From: Escherichia phage S143_2
Strand: one strand, 5' to 3'
Sequence record: MZ189261.1
Length of the DNA: 64,000 bases
The translations under genes were made by a program, and so were the position numbers. Under the pieces are notes generated by a model. That model searched no databases. It was given only the letters and a program-made list of their open reading frames with translations, and was not told the DNA's origin. Positions 1,807-12,756 of this stretch are shown here, piece after piece. Within the stretch, counting starts at the first letter, position 1, and the number at the start of each line of letters is the position of its first letter.

Positions 1807-2265
1807 TTATAGGATGGTAGTGAGCACCTTATATAATGATTTGCCCATTACATATTCCCATTGAGAAGGTTTAATTAAAGCGAATGCATCAAATTCAGGA
1901 ATCTGTCGTCCGTCTGGGAATGTATGATAGGAATTACAAACACTGTTTCTGAATTGCTCGTGCTCTACAGGGATGGTATATAGGAACAGATGAATATTCT
2001 TATTGTCTGAGTAATGATGTTCACCTAGGTCTTTCAGGAAGGCAGGGTCATATTGTGTAAACCCAGTTTCTTCTTCGCATTCACGAATAGCGGCTTCGAT
2101 AGGAGATTCGCCGGGCTCGACACGACCTTTAGGAATATCCCACCGATGAGCTAAAGAACCTTTAGGACGAGAACCAGTTACACGCCCCATGAATAATTCT
2201 TTATCTTCGGTAAGGAAAATAATACCAGCTGATAGTTCTTTCACTTTATTTTTCTTACTCATCAT
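1807..2265 (-). CDS. nudE: Nudix hydrolase
   Basis: Nudix box GRVEPGESPIEAAIRECEEETGF; position immediately upstream of e as T4 e.1; start chosen at MSKKNK after AGGAA. Confidence 0.85.
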   Translation of the reverse strand: MMSKKNKVKELSAGIIFLTEDKELFMGRVTGSRPKGSLAHRWDIPKGRVEPGESPIEAAIRECEEETGFTQYDPAFLKDLGEHHYSDNKNIHLFLYTIPVEHEQFRNSVCNSYHTFPDGRQIPEFDAFALIKPSQWEYVMGKSLYKVLTTIL

Positions 2266-2753
2266 CTCAAATTCCTGCATTCGGTAATAAAACGTTCAAC
2301 TTCATTATTCTTGGCCTTTATCTTGTCTTTATGTTCTTGTAAACTACTTTTAATAAGATTAATAATGATGGCGGTGGTGCCGCCGCCAATGATGCCACCA
2401 ACAACACTTATGATAATAGATGCTAATAAGATAGCAATAATATCAACAAAACCTAAAGAACTCACCTTAGTACTGAAAAACCATATAGACGGTACAAATA
2501 TAATCCATCCTGTTATCCATTGGCACTTATTGAAAAACTTTTCAAGCTCAGCTTGAGTTGTTTGTATTACTTCATCGATAGGTTGATATCCATTAATGTA
2601 TCTGTTCACGATAATACCTGCTGGCTGGTCGATTTTAAATTCTTGGCAAATACGTTTCACTAAGTAGGATGGACAGGATGTCCAATCTACTGAATAGTAT
2701 GAAATACCTTCATTGCCATCGTCTATATTAGACCAATATGTTTTGTTAATCAT
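2262..2753 (-). CDS. small membrane protein (163 aa), two predicted TM helices, unknown function
   Basis: Hydrophobic stretches WITGWIIFVPSIWFF and FVDIIAILLASIIISVVGGIIGGG; C-terminal ERFITECR motif. Confidence 0.6.
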   Translation of the reverse strand: MINKTYWSNIDDGNEGISYYSVDWTSCPSYLVKRICQEFKIDQPAGIIVNRYINGYQPIDEVIQTTQAELEKFFNKCQWITGWIIFVPSIWFFSTKVSSLGFVDIIAILLASIIISVVGGIIGGGTTAIIINLIKSSLQEHKDKIKAKNNEVERFITECRNLR

Positions 2754-3439
2754 TACCAGCCTTCCATAGGGAATTCCAGATAAACTTGAGCATTGACACG
2801 AATTTCATTGGTAATCTTTTTAACTCGGTCTGTATTACGAGATACACGTCCGAACCAACGCCATCCATTACTAATTGCACGAGAACCAGTGTGCCATGTT
2901 TGCCAATCAAACTGAAGAAGAGTACGATCTGGAGCTTCCCATTTCTCTAGTTCACCTTTTTCAATTTTTTCGAGGACTTCTTTGTGCCACTGGCGATAGA
3001 TAAGTTCGCCATCAGGAATCTGACTGAACTCTGCAGTTCCTGTTGCAAAATGAGTAGGACACACATCAGCGTTAACAAGACCAAGAATATGTTCAGACAA
3101 ATAGCGAGGATTGTCATAATCAGGTTGTCCTGCAGTAATAAAGTGTTGACCGACTGGAATATCTGGGCGAGGAACATCATCATGGTGATATCCAGGAATA
3201 GCAGGATACCAACCGGGCATCAGCATGTGAACTCGTGAATCAAATACTACATCCGAGTCTTTCCAATCGTCAGGAAGATTTTGGATAAAGCTACGAGTAA
3301 TCGGGCCACCATTATCAAAAGCAAAATTCAAATCGCAGTTAAAGAACATAGGCTCGTTTTTAATCTGGTCGTTTTTAATCGCATGAGCAAAACCACCTAC
3401 TGCACGAGCTTGGCTATTAAACACTTTAGAACTATTCAT
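2753..3439 (-). CDS. hypothetical protein (228 aa), His/Asp-rich motif
   Basis: Long ORF with SD GAGGAAAA; motif GYHHDD...HF; no family recognised. Confidence 0.6.
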   Translation of the reverse strand: MNSSKVFNSQARAVGGFAHAIKNDQIKNEPMFFNCDLNFAFDNGGPITRSFIQNLPDDWKDSDVVFDSRVHMLMPGWYPAIPGYHHDDVPRPDIPVGQHFITAGQPDYDNPRYLSEHILGLVNADVCPTHFATGTAEFSQIPDGELIYRQWHKEVLEKIEKGELEKWEAPDRTLLQFDWQTWHTGSRAISNGWRWFGRVSRNTDRVKKITNEIRVNAQVYLEFPMEGW

Positions 3440-3440
3440 A

Positions 3441-3746
3441 TTATTTTCCTCGACATTCTTTAATGAAATTTTCTAGATTGGTAGATTCAATAGCTTTTTT
3501 ACGAGCTTCTGCGTGTTCTTCTTCAGACAATTTACATTTATAATTGACCCAGACATTATGGTCGAAACTAGTCGTGGCATATAATAACAATGCTCCAACG
3601 AATAGCAAAAACGGTGATAAGAATACGAAACCAGGAACACCATCCATATCGTAGGCCTTTTGTAATACTGCAACAGAAAGAGCTGCGTAAAAAGGTGATG
3701 CAAATATTGTTAAAAGACCGATTCGGTTGGTTTCTGTTAATTTCAT
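3441..3746 (-). CDS. small membrane protein (101 aa)
   Basis: Two hydrophobic helices; C-terminus ...LENFIKECRGK; SD GAGGAGAA; downstream of early-promoter cassette. Confidence 0.6.
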   Translation of the reverse strand: MKLTETNRIGLLTIFASPFYAALSVAVLQKAYDMDGVPGFVFLSPFLLFVGALLLYATTSFDHNVWVNYKCKLSEEEHAEARKKAIESTNLENFIKECRGK

Positions 3747-3764
3747 AATATTCTCCTCATGTTT

Positions 3765-3806
3765 TAATAGGACTACTATATCATAGTCCTATAATTGTGT
3801 AAACAG
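3765..3806 (-). promoter_or_regulatory. early-promoter-like cassette with embedded stem-loop (copy 1)
   Basis: Minus strand GTTTAC (-35) then inverted repeat ATAGGACTA/TAGTCCTAT over the -10 region; near-identical copies at 5059-5101 and 12714-12756. Confidence 0.6.
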
Positions 3807-3816
3807 TTTTGTGAAG

Positions 3817-4773
3817 TTATTTGAAAGGTTTTACCATATGGAAATTTTGTTTGAAACGTTTGACGTAATCATCATGTCCTAAGCTTTGGTACATACTTAC
3901 TACTTTGCTGTAGTTTTCCCAGGCATACTCACGGAACCAACCAGAGGTGATGCTTGTACAGACTTTTTCCAATGCCATCATAAAACTGGCTTCAGGGTTA
4001 ATTTTAAAGTCATTAGGAATTTGAGAACGTTCTAATGCTAGTACACATGATTCTTCGTATACACCGGCCAATTTGACCATTTCTGGTAACGATTCAAACT
4101 TCTCGCGTGAGGTCATGACTTCAGAACCGTCTTTCATATAAAATGTATACGCTGGACGGTCTGTTAGTGCAATGGCTTCATGAATAGTATCATGGTCATA
4201 CGTATAGATGTCATCTTTAAAGAACGCACTTTTAGAAGTGTCAAGAACTGGGTGAGCATAGTTCAAGGTTTCTTTCTGGCGTTTCAGCATAATTTCAGTA
4301 AGTTCATCGTTCAGTGTAACACCTTTACCACGAAGATACTGAATATGGTTCATAGTCTTTAAAAAGAATGGATTATTTTTCTTGAAACGATGAGACAACT
4401 TAATTGCAAGACATATCTCAGGAGTTGCCCAGTAAAACCCGTTCAAACGGTCTTTAGTCAAATTTTTCTTGGCGTATTTTAAAAGGTCATAAGAAGACGT
4501 GAAATCTTCAGGAGTGAGTTCACCTACTAATTCACGGACATTAGTGATTGCCGGAACAATATATGCTTCAAAATGAGTTTCGCGTCCATTATGGAAGCAT
4601 TTGAAAACTTGGACATCAGGGTTATCTTGATGAACATATACACCCATCATTTGATTTTTGAATGCATTCCAAGAACCTTGGTCTGCAATAAAGTCCCAGT
4701 CACTATTTTTGATAGCGTTAGAATCAATAAGACCATGATAGTGAAGTGCACGAGAACCAATAACTAACATCAT
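3817..4773 (-). CDS. hypothetical protein (318 aa), possible nucleotidyltransferase-fold N-terminus
   Basis: Strong SD GAGGAAAA; N-terminal LVIGSRA...SDWDFIA loosely fits the G[GS]...DxD NTase pattern; no family recognised. Confidence 0.6.
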   Translation of the reverse strand: MMLVIGSRALHYHGLIDSNAIKNSDWDFIADQGSWNAFKNQMMGVYVHQDNPDVQVFKCFHNGRETHFEAYIVPAITNVRELVGELTPEDFTSSYDLLKYAKKNLTKDRLNGFYWATPEICLAIKLSHRFKKNNPFFLKTMNHIQYLRGKGVTLNDELTEIMLKRQKETLNYAHPVLDTSKSAFFKDDIYTYDHDTIHEAIALTDRPAYTFYMKDGSEVMTSREKFESLPEMVKLAGVYEESCVLALERSQIPNDFKINPEASFMMALEKVCTSITSGWFREYAWENYSKVVSMYQSLGHDDYVKRFKQNFHMVKPFK

Positions 4774-4801
4774 AATATTTTCCTCGGATTAATTCATTAA
4801 C

Positions 4802-5053
4802 TTAAATTTCACGACATGCGATATCATATTCATCCCAGAGGTCATCGTGTGAAGCCTCTACCAATGGAACGATTGTACCATTTATGTCTTCATTATAAGG
4901 GCAAATTGTACAGTGCGCATCTTCGAATCGGATACCTTTGTGTTCAGATTTTTTATAACGCATATCGAATATCTTTGCAAATTTTTCACGAGTAATGGTT
5001 TTACCAACCACTTTGGTTCCGATACTTTCGTAATAAATCATTGTGGACTCCAT
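4802..5053 (-). CDS. hypothetical protein (79-83 aa)
   Basis: ORF downstream of early-promoter cassette; alternative start at 5041. Confidence 0.5.
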   Translation of the reverse strand: MESTMIYYESIGTKVVGKTITREKFAKIFDMRYKKSEHKGIRFEDAHCTICPYNEDINGTIVPLVEASHDDLWDEYDIACREI

Positions 5054-5058
5054 TTAAT

Positions 5059-5101
5059 TTGATAGGACTACTATAACATAGCCCTATCTTGTTGTAAACT
5101 G
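5059..5101 (-). promoter_or_regulatory. early-promoter-like cassette with stem-loop (copy 2)
   Basis: gataggactactataacatagccctat...gtaaac, about 85-90% identical to copies at 3765 and 12714. Confidence 0.6.
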
Positions 5102-5103
5102 TT

Positions 5104-5301
5104 TTAGCAAGAATAACTAGACGATACCCAGCCTTGAACAGTGATACTATTGTGGGATAATGAGATCGCGTCCTGGAGATTCAGACCTGCGTTATCTTCA
5201 ATCCATAACGTAACTTCTTCGCGTTCTTCTGTTGCAATTTGGAACAGGTTTTCCAGAGCAGCTACTGCCGTACGTACAGCACAATCTAATTCACGAGACA
5301 T
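5104..5301 (-). CDS. small protein, paralog family member (65 aa)
   Basis: C-terminus ...QGWVSSSYSC shared with the next two ORFs. Confidence 0.5.
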   Translation of the reverse strand: MSRELDCAVRTAVAALENLFQIATEEREEVTLWIEDNAGLNLQDAISLSHNSITVQGWVSSSYSC

Positions 5302-5310
5302 ATGGTTTCC

Positions 5311-5583
5311 TTAGCAAGTGTGAGAAGATGCGATCCAACCACCAGTTTCGAGGCTTAGGTTGTAGTCGTATTGGTAAACGTCGGCCCATTCAGCATAGCC
5401 GTTTTTTGTACAACGTTCAAGGTCGGCTTTAAGCTGTCCGGGTGAATGATATGTTCCACCCATACCATAAGCTGGATACAAGTCGAATGTTGTGTTTTGT
5501 TTATCAGCAATTTCTTTGGCAGCCTCAATAGCTGCATAGATTTTTGCTACAGCTTCAGCCAATTCGGTTTGTTCTTTAGACAT
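5311..5583 (-). CDS. small protein, paralog family member (90 aa)
   Basis: C-terminus ...GGWIASSHTC; stop overlaps TAAGGAA SD of next gene. Confidence 0.55.
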   Translation of the reverse strand: MSKEQTELAEAVAKIYAAIEAAKEIADKQNTTFDLYPAYGMGGTYHSPGQLKADLERCTKNGYAEWADVYQYDYNLSLETGGWIASSHTC

Positions 5584-5592
5584 AGTGATTCC

Positions 5593-5898
5593 TTAGCACA
5601 ACGCAGAAGACGAAACCCAAGCACCTTCAGTAATAACGTAACCGTTACCTTCACGCTTAACATCGCCACCATTATTTTCAATTTCATCTTTCATCCACTG
5701 GGATACGATTTCACCCTTAGGATAATAAGTACGACCGCTACCATAATCACCTACAGAAAATGATACGGCATATTGGTCTGCGATCTTTGTTGCTTCTTCT
5801 TCGATACGTTCAGCTTGATTCAGAAGTTTATAAATTGCGTCTGAAGCGGATTTGGCATCATTAAACTCTGGTACTTTAATTTCAATAATCTTACTCAT
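5593..5898 (-). CDS. small protein, paralog family member (101 aa)
   Basis: C-terminus ...GAWVSSSALC; ATGA overlap with upstream gene. Confidence 0.55.
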   Translation of the reverse strand: MSKIIEIKVPEFNDAKSASDAIYKLLNQAERIEEEATKIADQYAVSFSVGDYGSGRTYYPKGEIVSQWMKDEIENNGGDVKREGNGYVITEGAWVSSSALC

Positions 5899-6254
5899 TT
5901 TCTACATTCCTTAATAAAGTTTTCGATTGTTTCATTTTCACGTCTAGCTAGGAGTTCATTATAACTAATCATTTGAGAAGCGTAAACCTTTTTATTTTTC
6001 TTGTTATGGTTTATAAAGTCGTAGTAAAAATAGACTACAGTACAAAAGGATGCGATGGATGCAAAGGCTTGGGTATACCGTAAGTCCTGCCATTGGTCTG
6101 TGAATCCACCAGTGTTCCCTATAAATCCTAACACAACGCCGTCAATAAGAAATCCAACTAATCCAAAGGCAAATCCCATGCCAATACTCATAATAAAAAT
6201 TAGAATGTTCTCACCAAGAGAAGGCCATACGGTTAAGAGTTGAGGCTTTTGCAT
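5895..6254 (-). CDS. small polytopic membrane protein (119 aa)
   Basis: Multiple hydrophobic helices; C-terminus ...IENFIKECRK. Confidence 0.6.
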   Translation of the reverse strand: MQKPQLLTVWPSLGENILIFIMSIGMGFAFGLVGFLIDGVVLGFIGNTGGFTDQWQDLRYTQAFASIASFCTVVYFYYDFINHNKKNKKVYASQMISYNELLARRENETIENFIKECRK

Positions 6255-6628
6255 CTTATTTCCTTAACGAATTCCATAGCTTCTTCATATTCATACTTTT
6301 TAACAGCTTCATCATACTGAGCTTGGGCTTTTGCGCACTGAACTTTCCATTCTCTTAATCGGGCTCTGTGATGACGGCCTTGGTGCCAATATCCTGCCCA
6401 ATTAATAGGCATTAATAAAAACGGTACAATAAGTGGTGCGACGAACATTAATGAAAACGCTGCATCAGACGATATAACTTTATTGGAATCTAAAACAGCT
6501 CCTATAATCATAAAGATTAAAAACGCTAAAGCTAAAATAGGGCCAAATAGTACTTCATTTGGGATTAATTTACGCTTGTATTCATACGCCCAGGGCTTAC
6601 TTGGCATGTATAGGGTTGGCTTTGACAT
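6233..6628 (-). CDS. small membrane protein (about 131 aa)
   Basis: Start trimmed to ATG 6628 (track start was TTG); TM segments LFGPILALAFLIFMIIGAVL and AFSLMFVAPLIVPFLL; C-terminal EFVKEIRCK. Confidence 0.55.
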   Translation of the reverse strand: MSKPTLYMPSKPWAYEYKRKLIPNEVLFGPILALAFLIFMIIGAVLDSNKVISSDAAFSLMFVAPLIVPFLLMPINWAGYWHQGRHHRARLREWKVQCAKAQAQYDEAVKKYEYEEAMEFVKEIRCKSLNS

Positions 6629-7193
6629 ATTCTCTACATTCCATAATAAATTGCTCAAGGATTAAATTGTTAGTGAAATTAGGACTAACAACCATGGTTT
6701 CATAAAGCGCATCAATAGCACTTAAAGCATCAACTCTTTTAAGCAAAGGCTTGCCTTCATACATAGTTTCAGAATCGACGATTAAAGTGAAGTAGTATTT
6801 TTTATTATTGACCAGAACTTCTGTATCAATATAAAACATGTTAGACCTTAAAAGCTTGTCTCTAAAGCCTATGTAATCATCTGAACGTTCACTGATATAG
6901 TCCCATTCAGTGTTTAAACAACAAACAGACCACGTAGGAGCAACGAAATCAGTGAATCTAATATCATGGTCTGCAACTAGTTTAGCAATAGCTCCGATAT
7001 CATGAATCATAATACCTGGGGCTAATAAAGATTTTCGGTTATTTGCATATTCAGTTGTCTCATAAGAAGACGACCAGTACCATTTACGTCCAGTTGCAAC
7101 ATATCGTAATGAATCAACTAAAGACGTAGGTGGATTTACCTTATCTCGGAACTCTTCGAACATTGAGTCAATATCATTATTTTGGTTTCGCAT
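6597..7193 (-). CDS. hypothetical protein (about 198 aa)
   Basis: Start trimmed to ATG 7193 with AAGGAG SD; contains EQFIMECR near C-terminus. Confidence 0.55.
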   Translation of the reverse strand: MRNQNNDIDSMFEEFRDKVNPPTSLVDSLRYVATGRKWYWSSSYETTEYANNRKSLLAPGIMIHDIGAIAKLVADHDIRFTDFVAPTWSVCCLNTEWDYISERSDDYIGFRDKLLRSNMFYIDTEVLVNNKKYYFTLIVDSETMYEGKPLLKRVDALSAIDALYETMVVSPNFTNNLILEQFIMECREYVKANPIHAK

Positions 7194-7210
7194 GTTAACT
7201 CCTTTATTAT

Positions 7211-7238
7211 CCAAAAGGAGGACCGGAGTCCTCCGTAT
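7211..7238 (-). terminator. intrinsic terminator-like hairpin (GGAGGAC..GTCCTCC + T-run on minus strand)
   Basis: Perfect 7-bp stem followed by TTTTGG on the minus strand. Confidence 0.5.
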
Positions 7239-7242
7239 TATT

Positions 7243-7836
7243 TTATTTCAAAGAGTTAATATATTCTTGTACATCAGCAGAAGTGGTTTCGACACCAGCT
7301 GGAGTACCATTGAACGTTTCAACACGAGTCAGAGTGTCTTCGATATCAACCTTAGTCAGTGCAGCGATTTCAATTACATCATCAGCCGTAGAGATACCAA
7401 GGGCATTAGCTGCTCGAGTTTCACGAATGTATTCGAGTTTGATTGCCAGATTCTGACGAGCATCGTCAAGTTCAACAACCTTACGAGCAATTTCAATTCG
7501 CATAGCGGCATACCCGTCAGCTTTTGTATTAAGTTGTTCGGCAGTTCGACGATACAGAAGACCAAGCTTGGCATGCATGGTAACATCTTGTCCTTCAGCC
7601 AGGAGCTTACGAATTTCACGTTCCTTAGAAGCGGCTTGCTTATTCTTTTCAATAACAAGTTCGCGAATACGTTTTTCTTCATTAATAGATTTAACAGAAG
7701 CCGTTTTTAGTTCTTTGATTTGGGTAATCAACTTATCTGCAGCTGCGTTATACTGTTCTTCGACAGTCAGATTTTTAGCCATAGCAGTACCCAGTTTAGT
7801 GCGGATGAATTCAACAAGTTTCTTCAGTGTGTTCAT
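7243..7836 (-). CDS. coiled-coil protein (about 197 aa), unknown function
   Basis: Start trimmed to ATG 7836 with AAGGTAA SD; heptad-rich helical sequence; own early promoter upstream. Confidence 0.55.
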
Positions 7837-7865
7837 ATTATTACCTTTCAATTGGTGGTTTATTA

Positions 7866-7900
7866 TCCAACGAGAGCATTATACTCTGCTCTCAAGAGTT
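7866..7900 (-). promoter_or_regulatory. early-promoter-like element with inverted repeat GAGAGCA/TGCTCTC
   Basis: Minus strand ATTTAC -35-like box followed by a stem-loop over the -10 region. Confidence 0.4.
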
Positions 7901-7906
7901 TGTAAA

Positions 7907-8134
7907 TTATTTTTTAATCAAATTGACATAAAACTCGGCGTCTTCCGGGTGCATGCCTTCGCAGTATTCTTCAACCATGAACTTCTTAACAGCTTCATAA
8001 GGACCACTCAGATTAAGCTCAGTTGTCCAGAACTTGGAATCTTGGACTGAATCGATACGAACTTCAGGGTGTCGGTTGCGAATAACTTCTTCGGTGTATT
8101 CATAATCAACGACATCAATACTAACTTTAGCCAT
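7907..8134 (-). CDS. hypothetical protein (75 aa)
   Basis: ORF with upstream promoter-like element. Confidence 0.45.
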   Translation of the reverse strand: MAKVSIDVVDYEYTEEVIRNRHPEVRIDSVQDSKFWTTELNLSGPYEAVKKFMVEEYCEGMHPEDAEFYVNLIKK

Positions 8135-8180
8135 TTTATTTTCCTCTTGATTTGATGTGATTACTATAACATAAACTTAC

Positions 8181-8345
8181 TTAGATGTAAATTATTTCAA
8201 CGTCACCTTTAGCTGCTTTATAACCTTCAGCCCAAGATACAACAGAGTTTTTATCCGAGGATTCAAATTCAGGCATTGGACTTTCACCAATATTCACACA
8301 GTATGTTTCTTCATTTTCGTCAAACCAAATAATTAAAGTAGTCAT
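8181..8345 (-). CDS. hypothetical small protein (54 aa)
   Basis: Hand-translated MTTLIIWFDENEETYCVNIGESP...; preceded by GGAG SD inside a cassette duplicated at 45783. Confidence 0.4.
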   Translation of the reverse strand: MTTLIIWFDENEETYCVNIGESPMPEFESSDKNSVVSWAEGYKAAKGDVEIIYI

Positions 8346-8386
8346 TTTGTTTACTCCACTGTAGTTGATAAGTCTATAGTATCACC
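8341..8386 (-). promoter_or_regulatory. promoter/RBS/start-codon cassette (copy A)
   Basis: 44 of 46 nt identical to 45783-45830, including the ATG and first codons. Confidence 0.6.
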
Positions 8387-8412
8387 ATCCTTGGTGCTTG
8401 TACATCATTATT

Positions 8413-8718
8413 TTATTTTTTCCAACTTAACAACTTGTAGTGTCCTTCATTCATACGTGGTTTATCCCAAGAAATACTAATATACGATTCACTGTCAATA
8501 GAAGTCGCCGGGTTTTTCTCTACCGTAAGACCTTCACTTTCCAGCCATTCAATAGTATTTGCGCATAAATCTGAAGAACACCTCATCGGAAACCGGCAAG
8601 ATTTTTCACCTTTAGCTGCAGTGTTATACATCTTTTCTAAAATACGCTTTTGCACGTTTTTAAAAATAGTTTCAGCAGATTCTTCAGATTTTTTATTCAG
8701 TTCGGTATAAAGACTCAT
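8413..8718 (-). CDS. hypothetical protein (101 aa)
   Basis: ORF with SD GAGGAAAA. Confidence 0.5.
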   Translation of the reverse strand: MSLYTELNKKSEESAETIFKNVQKRILEKMYNTAAKGEKSCRFPMRCSSDLCANTIEWLESEGLTVEKNPATSIDSESYISISWDKPRMNEGHYKLLSWKK

Positions 8719-8827
8719 AACATTTTCCTCATGTTTTTATAGGTCTATAGTAACACATCTAGGGAAGAAGTAAACAACTTTTTCAGTAAGTTATAGACCC
8801 CCTAATGGGGACCGAAGTCCCCATTCT

Positions 8828-9454
8828 TTACTTACGAGTTTTTGCATACTGAGCAGCGTCAGCAGCCAAACGACCTGCCTGACGAAGTTTTTCTTTAATC
8901 GCATCGTGAAGTGGTTGAGTATACTTCAAACCTTCGATAGTCAAATAAAGACGATAAAGGTCTGGGGTGTCAAGGTTGTTGATATGTTGGCCATTACGAA
9001 GAATATTGAATTCACGAACGAGTGAAGATGTATCAGATTCAATATCACGAACAAGCGAAGATAGTTGTTTATATTTTTTTTCCAGGCTAGAAGTATCAAA
9101 CTTAAGAGCAGGAGCTTTAGGAGTTGCTTTTACTTCCGGCTTAGGCTCAGGTTTTGCTACTGCTTTAGGGGTCGCAGGTTTAGGAGTGGTAGGAGCAGGT
9201 TTCACTTTAGGCGAACCCGATTTAGCAGAAACACCACCACTAACAATATCTTTGAATGCTTTAGAAGCTCTGTAATATTCTTTTTGGCTGGAAGTGTCGA
9301 TACCGTACATGGCTTGAACGTTTTTGAAAAACTCTGTACTAGTTTTTGTACCAGAAATAGCATCGTAAGCAGCTTGCCATTTCTCTTTTGTCATACGTAC
9401 ACCGGCTTCGGTGATTACTTCCGTTTCGGCTAAAAATTCATTAAAAGTATACAT
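8828..9454 (-). CDS. internal-protein-like capsid-targeted protein (208 aa), Pro/Lys-rich central region
   Basis: N-terminus MYTFNEFLAETE resembles the IP targeting sequence; late promoter TATAAATA 36 nt upstream. Confidence 0.5.
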   Translation of the reverse strand: MYTFNEFLAETEVITEAGVRMTKEKWQAAYDAISGTKTSTEFFKNVQAMYGIDTSSQKEYYRASKAFKDIVSGGVSAKSGSPKVKPAPTTPKPATPKAVAKPEPKPEVKATPKAPALKFDTSSLEKKYKQLSSLVRDIESDTSSLVREFNILRNGQHINNLDTPDLYRLYLTIEGLKYTQPLHDAIKEKLRQAGRLAADAAQYAKTRK

Positions 9455-9489
9455 TGATGGTCCTTAGAAAGTAGGTTTATTGTTTACTA

Positions 9490-9497
9490 TATTTATA
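9490..9497 (-). promoter_or_regulatory. T4-type late promoter TATAAATA
   Basis: Exact TATAAATA on minus strand upstream of the 8828..9454 start. Confidence 0.6.
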
Positions 9498-9498
9498 C

Positions 9499-9529
9499 AA
9501 AAAAGCCCCAACCTTTCGGAAGGGGCTAT
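9499..9529 (-). terminator. rho-independent terminator
   Basis: Minus strand AGCCCCTTCCGAAAGGTTGGGGCT followed by TTTTTTG. Confidence 0.7.
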
Positions 9530-9829
9530 ATACCTTGTCGGGGTTCCACCTACTAAGGCAAGTGTTTGTACGAAACGCCGGGGTTCGAACCCGGTTATTA
9601 AGCAGTTGACGCTACTCAATATTTTTAAAAGGCCATATCTCGACCATATCCGAACGTTCCGTCAAAAACGCTACTCGGCTTACGGCAAAGATATTTCCTC
9701 GAATCGATAATTCGGTGCGCCGTTTCTGCTGTGGTGTAAGGGGATATTAACAAATCGTAAAGATTTATTAAGACCAGTCCTTACTCAGGGAACATCAGTC
9801 CGACGACTTACCGGTAGCGACCCGGCTTC

Positions 9830-10174
9830 TTATTTTGGCATATCATCAATTTGCTCTCGACGCCGACGCCATAGATTAATCGCTTCATTAACACATTCGG
9901 CGTTTGGTATATGACGGCAATAATATAATGATTCGCGTTTCTGGAACCGATGTTGCAATGGGATTTCGTTTAAAAGGTCTTTACGGTCAAAGTATTCAAA
10001 ACTAGTTAACCCGGAACGGTTTTTAATGAACTTCCAATGACCGAATTCATTTTGAACATAGATGTAATCTGCGTGTTGGTATAACAAATTAATCAATCGG
10101 TCTGAAATAACTGTATCATGTTCGTTAAAATAAAACGTTAAATCATGAACTACTAAGTAAACATTACCTTTCAT
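9830..10174 (-). CDS. hypothetical protein (114 aa)
   Basis: Start trimmed to ATG 10174 with GAGGAAAA SD; the longer track ORF would overlap tRNA-Arg. Confidence 0.55.
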   Translation of the reverse strand: MKGNVYLVVHDLTFYFNEHDTVISDRLINLLYQHADYIYVQNEFGHWKFIKNRSGLTSFEYFDRKDLLNEIPLQHRFQKRESLYYCRHIPNAECVNEAINLWRRRREQIDDMPK

Positions 10175-10192: not shown

Positions 10193-10269
<77 letters not shown>

Positions 10270-10273
10270 TATT

Positions 10274-10348
10274 TGGCGGACGTGATAGGATTCGAACCTA
10301 TAACCAATCGCTTAACAGGCGATCGCTCTGCCATTGAGCTACACATCC
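10274..10348 (-). tRNA. tRNA-Asn (anticodon GUU), CCA encoded
   Basis: Acceptor GGATGTG/CACGTCC, anticodon stem ATCGC/GCGAT, loop CTGTTAA, T-arm ATAGG TTCGAAT CCTAT. Confidence 0.8.
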
Positions 10349-10352
10349 AAAT

Positions 10353-10439
10353 TGGTGGGGAGTGATGGAGTCGAACCACCCGAGTCGCAATGACAATGGA
10401 TTTACAGTCCACACCGCTACCTCTACGGGATAACTCCCC
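10353..10439 (-). tRNA. tRNA-Tyr (anticodon GUA), long variable arm, CCA encoded
   Basis: Acceptor GGGGAGT/ACTCCCC, anticodon loop CTGTAAA, T-loop TTCGACT. Confidence 0.75.
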
Positions 10440-10451
10440 TAATTCATAATT

Positions 10452-10526
10452 TGGTGGCCCTGGGTGGAATTGAACCACCATCTGGCGATTATGAGTCGCT
10501 TGCTTGAACCTTCCAGCTACAGGGCC
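10452..10526 (-). tRNA. tRNA with anticodon CAU (Ile lysidine-type by T4 synteny, or Met)
   Basis: Acceptor GGCCCTG/CAGGGCC, anticodon loop CTCATAA, T-arm GGTGG TTCAATT CCACC. Confidence 0.75.
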
Positions 10527-10527
10527 T

Positions 10528-10603
10528 TGGTGCTGATTGACGGAATCGAACCGCCGACCTTCTCATTACAAGTGAGTTGCTCTACCTACTGAGCTAAATC
10601 AGC
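10528..10603 (-). tRNA. tRNA-Thr (anticodon UGU), CCA encoded
   Basis: Acceptor GCTGATT/AATCAGC, D-arm GCTC AGTAGGTA GAGC, anticodon loop CTTGTAA. Confidence 0.8.
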
Positions 10604-10608
10604 AAAAC

Positions 10609-10698
10609 TGGCGGAGGCGATAGGATTTGAACCTATGAGTCGCCGGAGCGACTGCCGGTTTTCAAGACCGGTGCATTAAACCACTCTGCCACGCCTCC
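10609..10698 (-). tRNA. tRNA-Ser (anticodon UGA), long variable arm, CCA encoded
   Basis: Acceptor GGAGGCG/CGCCTCC, anticodon stem CCGGT/ACCGG, loop CTTGAAA. Confidence 0.8.
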
Positions 10699-10700
10699 AG

Positions 10701-10774
10701 TCTCCATACAAGGATTTGAACCTTGGGCCTCCTGATCCCAAATCAGGCGCTCTACCAAACTGAGCTACACGGAG
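10701..10774 (-). tRNA. tRNA-Pro (anticodon UGG), no encoded CCA
   Basis: Acceptor CTCCGTG/TATGGAG, anticodon stem CCTGA/TCAGG, loop TTTGGGA; 2-nt spacer to tRNA-Ser. Confidence 0.8.
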
Positions 10775-10784
10775 TAAATTAAAT

Positions 10785-10858
<74 letters not shown>

Positions 10859-10863
10859 AAATT

Positions 10864-10950
10864 TGGTGCGAGAAGTGGGACTCGAACCCACAAGGAAATC
10901 ATTCCGCAGCATTTTAAGTGCTGTGCCTTTACCAATTTGGCCATTCTCGC
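10864..10950 (-). tRNA. tRNA-Leu (anticodon UAA), long variable arm, CCA encoded
   Basis: Acceptor GCGAGAA/TTCTCGC, anticodon loop CTTAAAA, T-arm GTGGG TTCGAGT CCCAC. Confidence 0.8.
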
Positions 10951-10951
10951 G

Positions 10952-11024
10952 CTGGGAATAAAGGACTCGAACCTTTGCATCCTGGAATCAAAATCCAGTG
11001 CCTTACCAACTTGGCTAATTCCCA
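10952..11024 (-). tRNA. tRNA-Gln (anticodon UUG), no encoded CCA
   Basis: Acceptor TGGGAAT/ATTCCCA (U1:A72), anticodon stem CTGGA/TCCAG, loop TTTTGAT; 1-nt spacer to tRNA-Leu. Confidence 0.8.
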
Positions 11025-11121
11025 ATTATTAACAAAGGCTCTCTAACAAGAACCCTTGATGATAGAGGGTATTAATCAGTGCGATATGAGTTAATAATAA
11101 CAAATAATTCTTAAAGCATAT

Positions 11122-11415
11122 TTACCATTTATGATAATACATATTTACGATGCAGTCAAGACCCAAAGGATTCTTGAAAATATCATATTCAAGAGGACCT
11201 TTTTCCGTTTCAATAAAGAAATCAAAATTTACTGTATTAAATTTACGGTCTTCCTTCACTAATTTAACTTGAGAAGATGAACGGTCAATGTAAACCTTTT
11301 CAACTTCAAAACATGTTAAAATGCCATAATCATCAATCAAGGCTTTAGCCGCGTCTTGATCATATTTATATCCATTTTCAATAGACGATACTTTAGCATA
11401 AAGAATCATTATCAA
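11122..11415 (-). CDS. hypothetical protein (97 aa)
   Basis: ORF; stop overlaps next gene start. Confidence 0.45.
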   Translation of the reverse strand: MIMILYAKVSSIENGYKYDQDAAKALIDDYGILTCFEVEKVYIDRSSSQVKLVKEDRKFNTVNFDFFIETEKGPLEYDIFKNPLGLDCIVNMYYHKW

Positions 11416-12048: not shown

Positions 12049-12357
12049 CTATTTTATTCCGCGTGATGCAATCGTATTCTGCCGTTTAACGCCAGTTTGT
12101 TTAAAGTTATGATTGTCAAGTTGATCGGTACGAGCAACTCCGAATGATGATTTAATCTTAGCTTTAGATCCTTTAGTTATAGAAATAAACATCTCGGGAG
12201 CCCCTTTCTTAAAGTCCGAAGCAATTACTTCAACACCGTTCTTAGCAAGTGACCTCAGAATTGCTTCCGCGTACTCATCATCAAGACCCGCTTGAGTATG
12301 AATAACGAATGTCTTTGGTGCAGCCGCTTCATTGATAAATTCTTTATAGGTTTTCAT
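12049..12357 (-). CDS. internal-protein-like capsid-targeted protein (102 aa)
   Basis: N-terminus MKTYKEFINEA. Confidence 0.6.
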   Translation of the reverse strand: MKTYKEFINEAAAPKTFVIHTQAGLDDEYAEAILRSLAKNGVEVIASDFKKGAPEMFISITKGSKAKIKSSFGVARTDQLDNHNFKQTGVKRQNTIASRGIK

Positions 12358-12417: not shown

Positions 12418-12690
12418 TCATTTTAAATAAATTGCGTATTTTTTATAACCCGCCGACTCATGACGAAGACCCTTATCATTAGCAAAACGCTCAATGTTGT
12501 TAATTTGATTCTGGTCAAGTTCAGAGATGTCAAACACGAAAAAGTTACGTTTGTTACCAACTGTTACATAGTCAGTTAAATCAATATCATATAGGTAATT
12601 GATGTCAGCAATCAAAGTCTTGACAGCTTTGCTAATTTTTACTTTTTCGTTAAAAGTAGCTTCATTGATAAATTCTTTATAGGTTTTCAT
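12418..12690 (-). CDS. internal-protein-like capsid-targeted protein (90 aa)
   Basis: N-terminus MKTYKEFINEA; in the position of T4 ipI next to 57B. Confidence 0.6.
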   Translation of the reverse strand: MKTYKEFINEATFNEKVKISKAVKTLIADINYLYDIDLTDYVTVGNKRNFFVFDISELDQNQINNIERFANDKGLRHESAGYKKYAIYLK

Positions 12691-12713: not shown

Positions 12714-12756
12714 TTGATAGGACTACTATAACATAGTCCTACAGGTGTGTAAACTG
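12714..12756 (-). promoter_or_regulatory. early-promoter-like cassette with stem-loop (copy 3)
   Basis: gataggactactataacatagtcctac...gtaaac; minus strand GTTTAC -35 then TAGGACTA/TAGTCCTA stem-loop. Confidence 0.6.

Follow-up and report, generated by a model that had tools for sequence, protein, structure and literature searches.

The 8,386-bp interval between nudE and tRNA-Arg in Escherichia phage S143_2 is best explained, with a probability of about 0.8, as the Mosigvirus form of the hyperplastic region found between e and the tRNA genes of T4, a reading that also takes in the gene module described below. The window analysed here (64,000 nucleotides of sequence record MZ189261.1) comes from a Mosigvirus, an RB69/HX01-like T-even phage, and the interval is an already known variable accessory-gene stretch of RB69-like phages, located between the lysozyme and tRNA genes. 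The region itself is ordinary. Unlike it, a two-part module in one of its gene blocks, which is shared by unrelated phages infecting Gram-negative bacteria, merits experiment.

The nudE-to-tRNA-Arg interval and its T4 equivalent

The interval spans positions 1807 (nudE stop) to 10192 (the base preceding tRNA-Arg) and contains 18 ORFs, every one on the minus strand, together with the stable RNAs rnaD and rnaC (Table 1). These values agree with a first-pass annotation of the sequence, which had given about 8.4 kb and about 18 ORFs. The T4 equivalent (NC_000866 67035-71172) measures 4,138 bp, so that the interval is twice as big, with an excess of 4.25 kb rather than the roughly 5 kb previously estimated.

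The first-pass annotation had also proposed a comparison with T4, and T4 does not hold the same ORF set. When all 18 ORFs were compared with the complete T4 genome by tblastn, 11 had no counterpart: ORF132c (228 aa), ORF133c, ORF134c (318 aa), ORF135c, ORF136c, ORF137c, ORF139c, ORF145c, ORF146c, the 208-aa ORF and ORF150c. T4 does carry e.2 to e.6, and frd.3 is present too, but elsewhere in its genome. At the DNA level, homology to T4 is confined to positions 1289-2255, 6244-7847, 9495-9835 and 10507-11200. The claim that several proteins lack a T4 counterpart therefore stands for the 318-aa and 228-aa proteins and for one of four small membrane proteins; it fails for the other three, which are T4 e.2, e.3 and e.4, and for the 202-aa coiled-coil protein, which is e.6.

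The interval occupies the same position between conserved genes as in T4. It is a chain of non-core accessory genes, presumably early-transcribed, with a backbone shared with T4 (nudE, e.2 to e.6, rnaD and rnaC) and three additional blocks missing from T4. Block A (ORF132c to ORF139c; 2753-5898, 3.15 kb) lies between e.2 and e.3, block B (frd.3, ORF145c, ORF146c and the 208-aa ORF; 7907-9454) takes the place of T4 e.7 and e.8, and block C consists of ORF150c. Far from being empty, the 375-bp gap at 9455-9829 holds rnaD and rnaC, and the rnaC copy of one close relative is scored as a tRNA by ARAGORN.

The array is 97.5% identical to phage HX01, and of 820 phage records with a match, 132 cover at least 80% of the interval, indicating that the array is genus-wide and not private cargo. 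The description of these genes as lineage-specific accordingly holds relative to T4, where 11 of 18 ORFs are absent, but not within Mosigvirus, across which the array is conserved, and its largest components are widespread.

Table 1. Features of the interval and its boundary. RB69-derived ORF names are taken from the JS09 annotation; percentages are identities to T4.
Feature	Position	Strand	Remarks
nudE (Nudix hydrolase)	1807..2265	-	PF00293 E 2e-16; T4 nudE 63%; likely start ATG at 2265, overlapping e.2 stop
e.2 homolog, 163 aa	2262..2753	-	phrog_2203; T4 e.2 26%, E 2e-7; two transmembrane segments predicted (hydropathy)
ORF132c-type 228-aa protein, predicted 2OG-Fe(II) oxygenase-like fold	2753..3439	-	no T4 counterpart
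ORF133c-type, 101 aa, two predicted transmembrane segments	3441..3746	-	phrog_9798; no T4 counterpart
Promoter-plus-hairpin cassette, copy 1	3767..3804	-	GTTTACA-N5-ATAGGACTATGATATAGTAGTCCTAT; JS09/JK42 indel breakpoint
ORF134c-type 318-aa predicted nucleotidyltransferase (DUF7277 + DUF7275)	3817..4773	-	MenT/AbiEii-like fold; no T4 counterpart
ORF135c-type 83-aa protein	4802..5053	-	phrog_3723; no T4 counterpart
Promoter-plus-hairpin cassette, copy 2	5062..5099	-	
ORF136c-type tail-bearing acidic protein, 65 aa	5104..5301	-	C-terminus GWVSSSYSC-stop
ORF137c-type tail-bearing acidic protein, 90 aa	5311..5583	-	AYGMGGTY; C-terminus GWIASSHTC-stop
ORF139c-type tail-bearing acidic protein, 101 aa	5593..5898	-	DYGSGRTYYP; C-terminus AWVSSSALC-stop
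e.3 homolog, membrane protein	5895..6254	-	T4 e.3 35%
e.4 homolog, membrane protein	6233..6628	-	T4 e.4 56%; likely start ATG at 6628 (MSKPTL, same in T4)
e.5 homolog	6597..7214	-	T4 e.5 47%
Terminator-like GC hairpin, then T run	7217..7234	-	downstream of e.6
e.6 homolog, coiled-coil-rich, 202 aa	7243..7851	-	T4 e.6 88%; phrog_1203
Promoter-like site TTTACA-17-TATAAT (11/12)	7878..7906	-	hairpin around -10 element
frd.3 homolog	7907..8134	-	PF05798 1e-38; T4 copy 60%, at 146.6 kb
ORF145c-type 54-aa protein	8181..8345	-	no T4 counterpart
ORF146c-type 101-aa protein	8413..8718	-	no T4 counterpart
Intergenic	8719..8827	-	terminator-like hairpin (8807-8822), then promoter-like GTTTAC...TACTATAG
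208-aa candidate internal (injected) head protein	8828..9454	-	N-terminus MYTFNEFLAE; no T4 counterpart
Intrinsic-terminator-like hairpin, then T6	9499..9526	-	after rnaC
rnaC (species 1 stable RNA) homolog, tRNA-like	9569..9707	-	T4 rnaC 136/139 identical
rnaD (species 2 stable RNA) homolog	9714..9833	-	T4 rnaD 105/119 identical
ORF150c-type 114-aa protein	9830..10174	-	between tRNA-Arg and rnaD; no T4 counterpart
tRNA-Arg(UCU)	10193..10269	-	upstream boundary of interval

Promoter cassettes and gene turnover

Close relatives are distinguished by whole-ORF indels, and gene content changes through recombination between dispersed promoter-plus-hairpin cassettes. The 38-nt cassette is present in three copies (the third at 12717-12754), where 0 are expected from 100 shuffles. 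JS09 and JK42 carry an additional 66-aa ORF with a cassette on each side, and the single cassette of the window at this point is a chimera of both, with a breakpoint overlap at 3798-3804. These cassette-bounded indels agree with the PeSL model (Arbiol et al. 2010, Comeau et al. 2014; PMC2839356, PMC4122927): in T4-type hyperplastic regions with PeSL, too, ORFans are gained and lost, and repeated early-promoter-plus-stem-loop cassettes stand at indel breakpoints. In contrast to the PeSL of RB49 and phi1, the cassette hairpin here extends over the -10 element and lacks a polyG/polyC (GGGG/CCCC) stem. Short direct repeats at gene junctions provide a second route. At the e.2/nudE junction, a whole-ORF indel of 78 aa is flanked by GAGATGA repeats; unlike indels in PeSL regions, it uses this 7-bp repeat, located at start codons, and no cassette.

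Strong sites resembling sigma-70 and T4 early promoters were found in five intergenic gaps (3775-3803, 5070-5098, 7878-7906, 8163-8191 and within 8719-8827), along with three terminator-like hairpins. Generic scans found no overall enrichment of promoters (49 found versus 38.6 +/- 6.7 expected) or of terminators (11 versus 8.9 +/- 3.6). The picture of short operons, every one with a promoter cassette at its head and terminators in between, was overstated.

A nucleotidyltransferase and its tail-bearing neighbors

An unexpected result was an eight-residue tail shared by small acidic proteins preceding the transferase: three small ORFs upstream of it (ORF136c, ORF137c and ORF139c) all terminate in W-x-x-S-S-x-x-C-stop. 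The strict tail occurs three times across the window and zero times in T4. Of 1,097 reading-frame segments from the 2.2 kb upstream of the transferase, 153 carry it, compared to 7 of 12,564 elsewhere. Tail-bearing ORFs precede the transferase in 74 of 83 loci and, once these are dereplicated at 80% identity, in 41 of 45 lineages spanning unrelated phage families, with the runner-up neighbor reaching 13 of 45. The pairing was confirmed in Otagovirus phiPsa347, Myxococcus phage Mx1, Acinetobacter phage Octan and Xanthomonas jumbo phage XbC2. A reverse search from the tail DNA alone recovered contigs that carry the transferase in 14 of 15 cases, and two tail proteins from a profile search have PF23942/PF23940 directly downstream. 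The invariant tail serines are encoded by TCN as well as AGY codons, indicating that selection acts on the peptide. The tail family comprises at least 662 clusters at 50% identity, with a median pI of 4.4. Together these results define a module of one to five small acidic W-x-x-S-S-x-x-C proteins followed by a same-strand transferase with a MenT/AbiEii-like fold, a pairing that is widespread and apparently undescribed. In the window, a promoter cassette and ORF135c separate the transferase from the tail proteins, and no tail ORFs lie close to the shorter, more divergent transferase homologs in actinophages and Vibrio phage K412.

Based on its structural model, the 318-aa protein is a Pol-beta-type nucleotidyltransferase with a MenT/AbiEii-like fold, and its family is present in 733 of 50,697 phage records, which represent many genera. 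No solved protein was matched by sequence, hmmscan placed it outside the AbiEii/DUF1814 (PF08843) and RlaP (PF10127) Pfam models, and its 200-residue C-terminal domain gave no convincing structural match. The closest structures are the tRNA-acceptor-stem transferases MenT1, MenT3/TglT and MenT4 (PMC10435456), with poly(A) polymerase and CCA-adding enzymes ranking lower in the lists.

Judging by gene neighborhood only, we favor an enzyme-partner pair. Tentatively, the transferase may work on the tail proteins, and in the simplest scheme it would transfer a nucleotide or phosphate onto a tail serine hydroxyl. Nucleotidyltransferases that modify a partner protein include GlnE, GlnD and the MNT of HEPN-MNT type VII TA systems, where a Pol-beta-fold enzyme is likewise encoded beside a small protein with possible hydroxyl acceptors. 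In those systems a tyrosine of a single defined partner is modified, whereas the candidate acceptors here would be two invariant serines in a tail common to many divergent proteins.

It is also possible, if doubtful, that the transferase acts on RNA or tRNA 3' ends, either repairing ends trimmed by host nucleases, as RlaP and CCA-adding enzymes do, or blocking host tRNAs in the manner of MenT. In that case the tail proteins would not be substrates and might instead regulate the enzyme. The structural neighbors point in this direction, and RlaP sets a precedent for phage-borne Pol-beta transferases in RNA repair (PMC7824862, PMC12776372). In 13 of 83 loci (7 of 45 lineages) a homolog of T4 Rnl1 or polynucleotide kinase is encoded no more than 6 kb away; the same distance takes in tRNA genes in about 10 of 45 lineages, and in the window they lie about 5.4 kb away. 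However, RNA-repair neighbors are far less constant than the tail proteins, the transferase matches neither PF10127 nor PF08843, and the invariant tail would be left unexplained.

A toxin-antitoxin-like pair, in which the small upstream proteins restrain the transferase, appears unlikely. The precedent is MenT1, which is blocked and induced to auto-phosphorylate by the 68-aa MenA1 (PMC10435456, PMC11375011). With MenAT and AbiE (DUF1814; MenT1-MenA1, PDB 8an4/8an5) the transferase has in common the Pol-beta core with GS and DxD motifs and, on the same strand directly upstream, genes for small helical proteins. It differs from them in sequence and in having an additional helical domain of 200 residues (DUF7275) that is highly conserved. 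The small proteins lack sequence similarity to MenA or AbiEi, occur in one to five divergent copies per phage, which is unusual in antitoxins, and are conserved in their C-terminal tail, which is not a helix. Moreover, the module is carried by lytic phages, and in a strictly lytic phage such as this one addiction has no obvious role.

Inherited synteny of functionally unlinked genes is improbable: many loci do belong to T4-like phages with common ancestry, but the pairing persists in Otagovirus, Mx1, jumbo and about 150-kb phages that have no other neighbor in common, and it is recovered from tail to transferase as well. Least probable are precursors matured at the tail by the transferase and, in some phages, a 2OG oxygenase, with serine activation and elimination followed by cysteine addition to close an S-x-x-C ring of the lanthionine or aminovinyl-cysteine type. 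In favor are the peptide-level invariance of Ser(-4), Ser(-3) and the C-terminal Cys(0), the several divergent genes that adjoin an enzyme gene, and a Ser-x-x-Cys-COOH spacing similar to that in the C-terminal ring of epidermin-type peptides. Against it, the proteins have 50-150 aa, structured-looking bodies and a conserved tail in place of a leader. The 45 lineages show no conserved dehydratase, cyclase, decarboxylase, protease or exporter in the neighborhood: other neighbors reach at best 13 of 45, the oxygenase 6 of 45, and a downstream membrane protein 7 of 45, the last being background.

The defense question and other candidate cargo

For the suggestion that this cargo may be defense-related, two indirect hints emerged, given below. 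Across all interval ORFs, PADLOC defense models gave no convincing match, the sole hit being a weak one of e.2 to PDC-M09B (E 0.0067), and Pfam, PHROGs and NCBIfam annotated no function. We regard it as questionable that the interval is mainly a defense or anti-defense arsenal whose additional genes serve to overcome host immunity. In favor of this view, the genes are accessory and variable and are located behind early-type promoters, and the composition of the small acidic proteins (pI 4.4) is typical of nucleic-acid mimics. Indirect hints come from the fold predicted for the transferase, which is shared with abortive-infection and TA toxins, and from the capsid-targeting-like N-terminus of the 208-aa ORF; genes with this motif at Ip loci include proven anti-type-IV-restriction factors (10.1101/2025.11.20.689424). 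Yet the array is nearly invariant over more than 130 Mosigvirus genomes, unlike fast-turnover counter-defense loci.

Based on its sequence, the 208-aa protein may be packaged in the head and injected along with the DNA. Its N-terminus resembles the capsid-targeting sequence of T4 IpI, IpII and IpIII (MKTYQEFIAE) and includes an L-x-E site at which the prohead protease could act, and its gene lies in a variable area adjoining known Ip loci. Beyond the first 10 residues it has no similarity to any T4 Ip protein, and it differs from them in its 208-aa length and Pro/Lys-rich linker.

The 228-aa protein is probably an Fe(II)/2-oxoglutarate oxygenase, judging from its modeled fold, and probably not an obligate partner of the module. 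Neither Pfam nor PDB gave a match by sequence, and the model has low confidence (pLDDT 51-64) in the stretch that contains the HHDD motif. The protein is compact compared with PhyH/EctD-type Fe(II)/2-oxoglutarate oxygenases but shares with them an H-x-D...H...R-x-S pattern, which is invariant throughout a family of about 1,300 members in the protein database.

Extent of the interval and comparison with T4

Every gene within the first 12.5 kb of the window lies on the minus strand; denV is followed by Ip-like ORFs, lysozyme e and nudE, then by a long run of small ORFs and ten tRNA genes. The interval between the nudE stop (1807) and the base preceding tRNA-Arg (10192) spans 8,386 bp and holds 18 ORFs. 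Its T4 equivalent (67035-71172, comprising nudE, e.2 to e.8, rnaC and rnaD) measures 4,138 bp, and the excess is therefore 4.25 kb rather than the roughly 5 kb put forward in the first-pass annotation.

We compared all 18 ORFs with the whole T4 genome by tblastn and found no counterpart for 11 of them (ORF132c, 133c, 134c, 135c, 136c, 137c, 139c, 145c, 146c, 150c and a 208-aa ORF). The 318-aa protein (ORF134c, hereafter the transferase) and the 228-aa protein (ORF132c, the oxygenase-like protein) are among these, as had been suspected, but the coiled-coil protein listed beside them as new to T4 is e.6, and of four membrane proteins so described only ORF133c is new, the others being e.2, e.3 and e.4. 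Identity to T4 was 63% for nudE, 26% for e.2 (E 2e-7), 35% for e.3, 56% for e.4 and 47% for e.5; frd.3 is 60% identical to T4 frd.3, which sits elsewhere in T4, at 146.6 kb. Homology to T4 at the DNA level is confined to 1289-2255, 6244-7847, 9495-9835 and 10507-11200, which delimits three extra blocks (A, B and C in the table).

The Escherichia phage HX01 is 97.5% identical to the 8,368-bp query, which matched 820 phage records; 132 of these covered at least 80% of it, nearly all from Mosigvirus, the genus of RB69 and of JS09, whose record supplies the RB69-derived ORF names. The observation of an enlarged interval is real but ordinary, a known kind of region conserved throughout a sequenced genus. 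What is gained here is annotation at the level of folds and the recognition that tail proteins and the transferase form a conserved pair: genes formerly 'hypothetical' yield two enzyme folds, a candidate injected protein and a strongly conserved two-gene module.

Two of the shared genes bear separate comment. The 163-aa e.2 (2262-2753) aligns by tblastn to T4 67960-67475 (67475-67960 of the T4 record, L001). T4 e.2 is annotated as a 102-aa protein (67652-67960), so the alignment continues past its end and reaches the 160-bp 'gap' preceding nudE; truncation may have cost T4 e.2 the membrane segment. At 88% identity to its T4 counterpart, against 26-56% for its neighbors, e.6 (7243-7851) is strongly constrained, and 33 of the 83 transferase loci surveyed below, Aeromonas phages included, have a homolog no more than 6 kb from the transferase. 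A PspA/IM30-like assignment for e.6 was dropped, as neither a Pfam match (E up to 5) nor a PDB sequence match was found.

Promoter-hairpin cassettes and ORF indels

The intergenic gaps contain a repeated composite of an early promoter, recognized by consensus scan, and a stem-loop. This cassette is a 38-nt motif, GTTTACA-N5-ATAGGRCTATGWTATAGTAGTCCTAT, with its -10 element inside a hairpin with a 9-bp stem; the three copies have 0-1 mismatch, with 0 expected by chance, and two further gaps, 7852-7906 and 8719-8827, contain related cassettes. Promoter function of the cassettes is predicted from the consensus, and a generic promoter scan gave no enrichment over shuffled sequence. The short operons of the first-pass annotation broadly hold, but they are not each headed by a cassette. 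Many genes of the interval are linked directly, the stop codon of one overlapping the start codon of the next.

Non-core ORFs lie between conserved genes here and vary among related phages. JS09 and JK42 are colinear with the window apart from two whole-ORF insertions. The first is a 66-aa ORF with a cassette on either side. The single cassette at this position in the window is chimeric, its left half matching the upstream copy of JS09 and its right half the downstream one, and the alignment blocks at the indel overlap over 3798-3804, placing the breakpoint inside the cassette. The second lies where e.2 meets nudE; this 78-aa ORF is delimited by a GAGATGA repeat located at the start codons. 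These indels are evidence of editing at the level of the region, and the first gives the T-even group a clean base-level example of an ORF indel bounded by cassettes. We read the region as an early accessory-gene array with content edited by recombination at cassettes and junction microhomologies (probability about 0.8).

The window cassettes behave as do the promoter/stem-loop (PeSL) cassettes published for T4-type hyperplastic regions (PMC2839356, PMC4122927). The PeSL stems of RB49 have polyG/polyC runs whereas the window stems do not; stems without G/C runs were likewise described in the Ip loci of T-even phages (PMC2839356). As such regions and their cassette-mediated shuffling are already published, and more than 130 sequenced genomes of Mosigvirus carry the array, the region itself adds little.

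A separate motif is found in the coding sequence. The C-termini of e.2, ORF133c, e.3, e.4 and e.5 share the peptide (F/V)-(I/V)-(K/T)-E-C/I-R, also present in T4 e.3, e.4 and e.5. Its codons, GAATGYAGRRAA, stand immediately 5' of the following gene's start codon. The motif may therefore have a second role, either as a signal for ribosome binding or translational coupling embedded in the gene or as a recombination joint.

Features of the interval and its flanks (window coordinates)
Feature	Coordinates	Strand	Remark
Block A	2753-5898	minus	extra relative to T4
Block B	7907-9454	minus	replaces T4 e.7 and e.8
Block C	9830-10174	minus	extra relative to T4
Cassette copies	3767-3804, 5062-5099, 12717-12754		third copy precedes one Ip-pattern ORF
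Sigma-70-type sites	3775-3803, 5070-5098, 7878-7906, 8163-8191	minus	high-scoring, intergenic; TTTACA-17-TATAGT or TATAAT, extended TG in several
Further sigma-70-type site	in 8719-8827	minus	consensus scan
Putative terminators, hairpin plus T-run	7217-7234, 8807-8822, 9499-9526	minus	scan; 9499-9526 follows rnaC and has a T6 run
Shared C-terminal peptide	2262-2300, 3441-3475, 5895-5930, 6233-6270, 6597-6660	minus	e.2, ORF133c, e.3, e.4, e.5
rnaC	9569-9707	minus	136/139 identical to T4
rnaD	9714-9833	minus	105/119 identical to T4
tRNA cluster, ten genes	10193-11024	minus	Arg, Asn, Tyr, Met(CAU), Thr, Ser, Pro, Gly, Leu, Gln
Five other Ip-pattern ORFs	1-202, 267-527, 1006-1287, 12049-12357, 12418-12690		start MK(T/M)Y.EF(I/L).E

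A MenT-like transferase paired with small tail proteins

The transferase carries DUF7277 and DUF7275 and belongs to a family with about 2,100 members in the protein database that is present in 733 of 50,697 phage genomes. G6-S7, D25-x-D27 and E69, the signature of Pol-beta nucleotidyltransferases, are invariant in 32 diverse members, and the C-terminal domain likewise has many invariant His, Asp, Glu, Arg and Lys residues. The AlphaFold model (pLDDT 91.5) has a Pol-beta fold with motifs I and II (hG[GS], DxD) of DUF1814/AbiEii/MenT, and Foldseek returned 5uvd, a nucleotidyltransferase-like protein of Paracoccidioides, as the top match (E 9.8e-4) and MenT1 with probability 1.0 (E 2.5e-3). By sequence, hmmscan found DUF7277 and DUF7275 alone, leaving the AbiEii Pfam model (C-terminal motifs III/IV) unmatched, and a profile search of all PDB sequences gave nothing at E up to 10. 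We conclude that the protein probably works like a MenT-type transferase, with membership in DUF1814 not established. Membership in RlaP was rejected, there being no PF10127 match and no similarity to T4 nrdC.11; linkage to RNA ligase is also sparse, with Rnl1 or Pnk genes nearby in only 7 of 45 lineages.

Three ORFs of the interval, ORF139c, 137c and 136c, are weak paralogs, each ending W-x-x-S-S-x-x-C-stop. We surveyed 83 loci encoding relatives of the transferase, 80 from IMG/VR and three more. In 74 of them, between one and five same-strand ORFs of 50-150 aa bearing the exact tail were found within the upstream 2.2 kb, where 153 of 1,097 reading-frame segments carried the strict tail motif versus 7 of 12,564 elsewhere in the loci; the whole window has three instances and T4 none. 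Dereplicating the transferase at 80% identity left 45 lineages, of which 41 have an upstream same-strand tail ORF; in one of the remaining four, tail ORFs are encoded on the other strand at a distance of about 6 kb. Other neighbors of the transferase were the next most frequent family (13/45), e.6 (11/45) and the oxygenase-like protein (6/45 lineages, 25/83 loci), and the last was accordingly rejected as an obligate third component. A small downstream membrane protein was rejected as well, its 7/45 lineages being at the 18% background.

The module crosses unrelated phage families. Pairing was seen in phages that share little else, namely phiPsa347 of Pseudomonas (four tail copies), Mx1 of Myxococcus, Octan of Acinetobacter, the Xanthomonas jumbo phage XbC2 and a 149-kb Klebsiella phage (five copies); the 227-aa protein adjoining the transferase in this Klebsiella phage is not homologous to the oxygenase-like protein. 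No tail pairing was found for the shorter, divergent transferase homologs of Streptomyces and Gordonia phages and Vibrio phage K412. In the reverse direction, three tail-specific DNA patterns recovered 15 contigs, of which 14 carry the transferase and the fifteenth ends where it would be. A profile search of a 5.8-billion-protein database gave only nine hits above threshold. Two tail proteins identified by profile search have PF23942/PF23940 genes immediately downstream, and the contig of a third ends before that position.

An exhaustive representative search placed the tail family at a minimum of 662 clusters at 50% identity. The proteins have in common an N-terminal helix, a YGxGG-type motif and an acidic linker, with a median pI of 4.4 against 6.7 for other small ORFs; among the best 146 matches, 134 have the strict tail and 134 the YGxGG-type motif. 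Codons of both classes, TCN and AGY, encode the two invariant serines, Cys is specified by either of its codons and three stop codons are used, so the constraint is on the peptide and not on the DNA. Our literature search found no relevant paper on DUF7275/DUF7277, the tail family or phage MenT-like/AbiEii-like enzymes.

Enzymes of this fold transfer NMP to hydroxyls, for example RNA 3'-OH and antibiotic hydroxyls. In the module the transferase would modify the tail serine of the small proteins, a reading we adopt tentatively as the simplest account of an invariant Ser-Ser tail on divergent proteins beside such an enzyme. MenT1 and MenT3 phosphorylate their own active-site Thr or Ser upon small-partner induction (PMC11375011).

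The small proteins might instead be regulators of a transferase whose targets are tRNA or RNA ends, a reading to which we give only slightly less weight; it is supported by the similarity to MenT, by tRNA genes nearby in about 10 of 45 lineages and by Rnl1 or Pnk genes nearby in 7. As to a cognate antitoxin gene beside the transferase, the small ORFs upstream in 41/45 lineages are multi-copy and unrelated to MenA or AbiEi. Individual loci add to the picture: divergent homologs lie 1-2 kb from a tRNA cluster in Gordonia phage Engineer (L109) and from an RNA ligase gene in Streptomyces phage Beuffert (L108), and two enterobacterial-type IMG/VR loci (L031 and L030) have tRNA genes merely 0.4-1.4 kb upstream of the transferase. 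Such proximity hints at RNA-directed activity. Maturation of the S-x-x-C end into a RiPP-like ring is very improbable, as the accessory enzymes are absent.

Tail-serine modification can be framed more fully. The transferase would covalently modify the W-x-x-S-S-x-x-C-COOH tail of a large, otherwise hypervariable family of small acidic phage proteins, by nucleotidylylation or phosphorylation of the tail serine, possibly followed by chemistry at the terminal cysteine. We consider this whole scheme unlikely; if true, it would be a previously unrecognized post-translational tagging system in hundreds of phages of Gram-negative hosts, T4 not among them. The module offers a short, testable hypothesis for a large body of phage 'dark matter' and bears on whether the targets of toxin-type transferases in phages are proteins, tRNA or both.

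Other cargo, stable RNAs and tRNA genes

PHROG families cover all 18 ORFs, nearly all of them families that lack an assigned function; Pfam recognizes NUDIX, FRD3 and two DUFs only, and NCBIfam nothing meaningful. The first-pass annotation had proposed possibly defense-related cargo, a reading that is unproven: 17 ORFs scanned against PADLOC models gave no convincing match, the sole hit being at E 0.0067 and 13 bits. A link to RB69 DNA arabinosylation was rejected, since that cluster (gp48 to gp53) lies elsewhere in the genome (PMC13326640). Hydrophobic segments, one or two per protein, were found in e.2, ORF133c, e.3 and e.4, and we found no support for the 'sulfurtransferase' label that JK42 and F27 attach to their e.4 homologs.

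The oxygenase-like protein has the double-stranded beta-helix fold of Fe(II)/2OG-dependent oxygenases. In 25 sequences H85 H86 D87 D88, H183 and R198-V-S200 do not vary; they are candidates for the H-x-D/E...H iron triad and the R-x-S motif that binds 2OG, with residues 81-110 modeled at pLDDT 51-64. It belongs to no curated family, with no Pfam or NCBIfam match even at E up to 5; a PDB sequence search was empty and only fold comparison was informative. One UniRef homolog is named 'Phytanoyl-CoA dioxygenase family protein'.

The N-terminus of the 208-aa ORF, MYTFNEFLAE, resembles the capsid-targeting sequence MKTYQEFIAE of T4 IpII/IpIII and ends in the (L/I)-x-E protease site. This pattern fits only six ORFs in the 64-kb window, the other five (one extending past the window start) falling in two classical Ip loci that flank the interval. 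We consider the 208-aa protein a candidate injected protein by its sequence. An Ip-locus gene with a capsid-targeting motif has been reported as a real anti-type-IV-restriction factor (preprint 10.1101/2025.11.20.689424).

The 375-bp 'gap' at 9455-9829 encodes both T4 stable RNAs, rnaC and rnaD, which we identified by alignment to T4; Rfam returned tRNAs alone and no rnaC or rnaD family. In a close relative (L010:381-474), ARAGORN labels the rnaC homolog a 94-nt 'tRNA-Stop (tta)' because this RNA, species 1, has a tRNA-like fold, and leaves the window copy uncalled; a suppressor tRNA was rejected on this ground. With the RNAs so placed, ORF150c lies between tRNA-Arg and rnaD. It is a protein gene wedged into the tRNA/stable-RNA transcription unit, its stop codon overlapping the 5' end of rnaD, and has a homolog in only 3 of the 83 loci.

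The tRNA cluster of T4 has eight tRNAs and the homing endonuclease segB, in place of which the window has tRNA-Asn and tRNA-Tyr; the Met(CAU) tRNA is the counterpart of T4 tRNA-Ile. JK42 has only tRNA-Arg and one Met-type tRNA ahead of the next ORF, and the JS09 table has no tRNA rows. A 2026 paper on SegB and Septu, in which the DUF7275/DUF7277 genes go unmentioned, reports that the Septu defense system cleaves tRNA-Tyr in T6 infection (PMC13096335).
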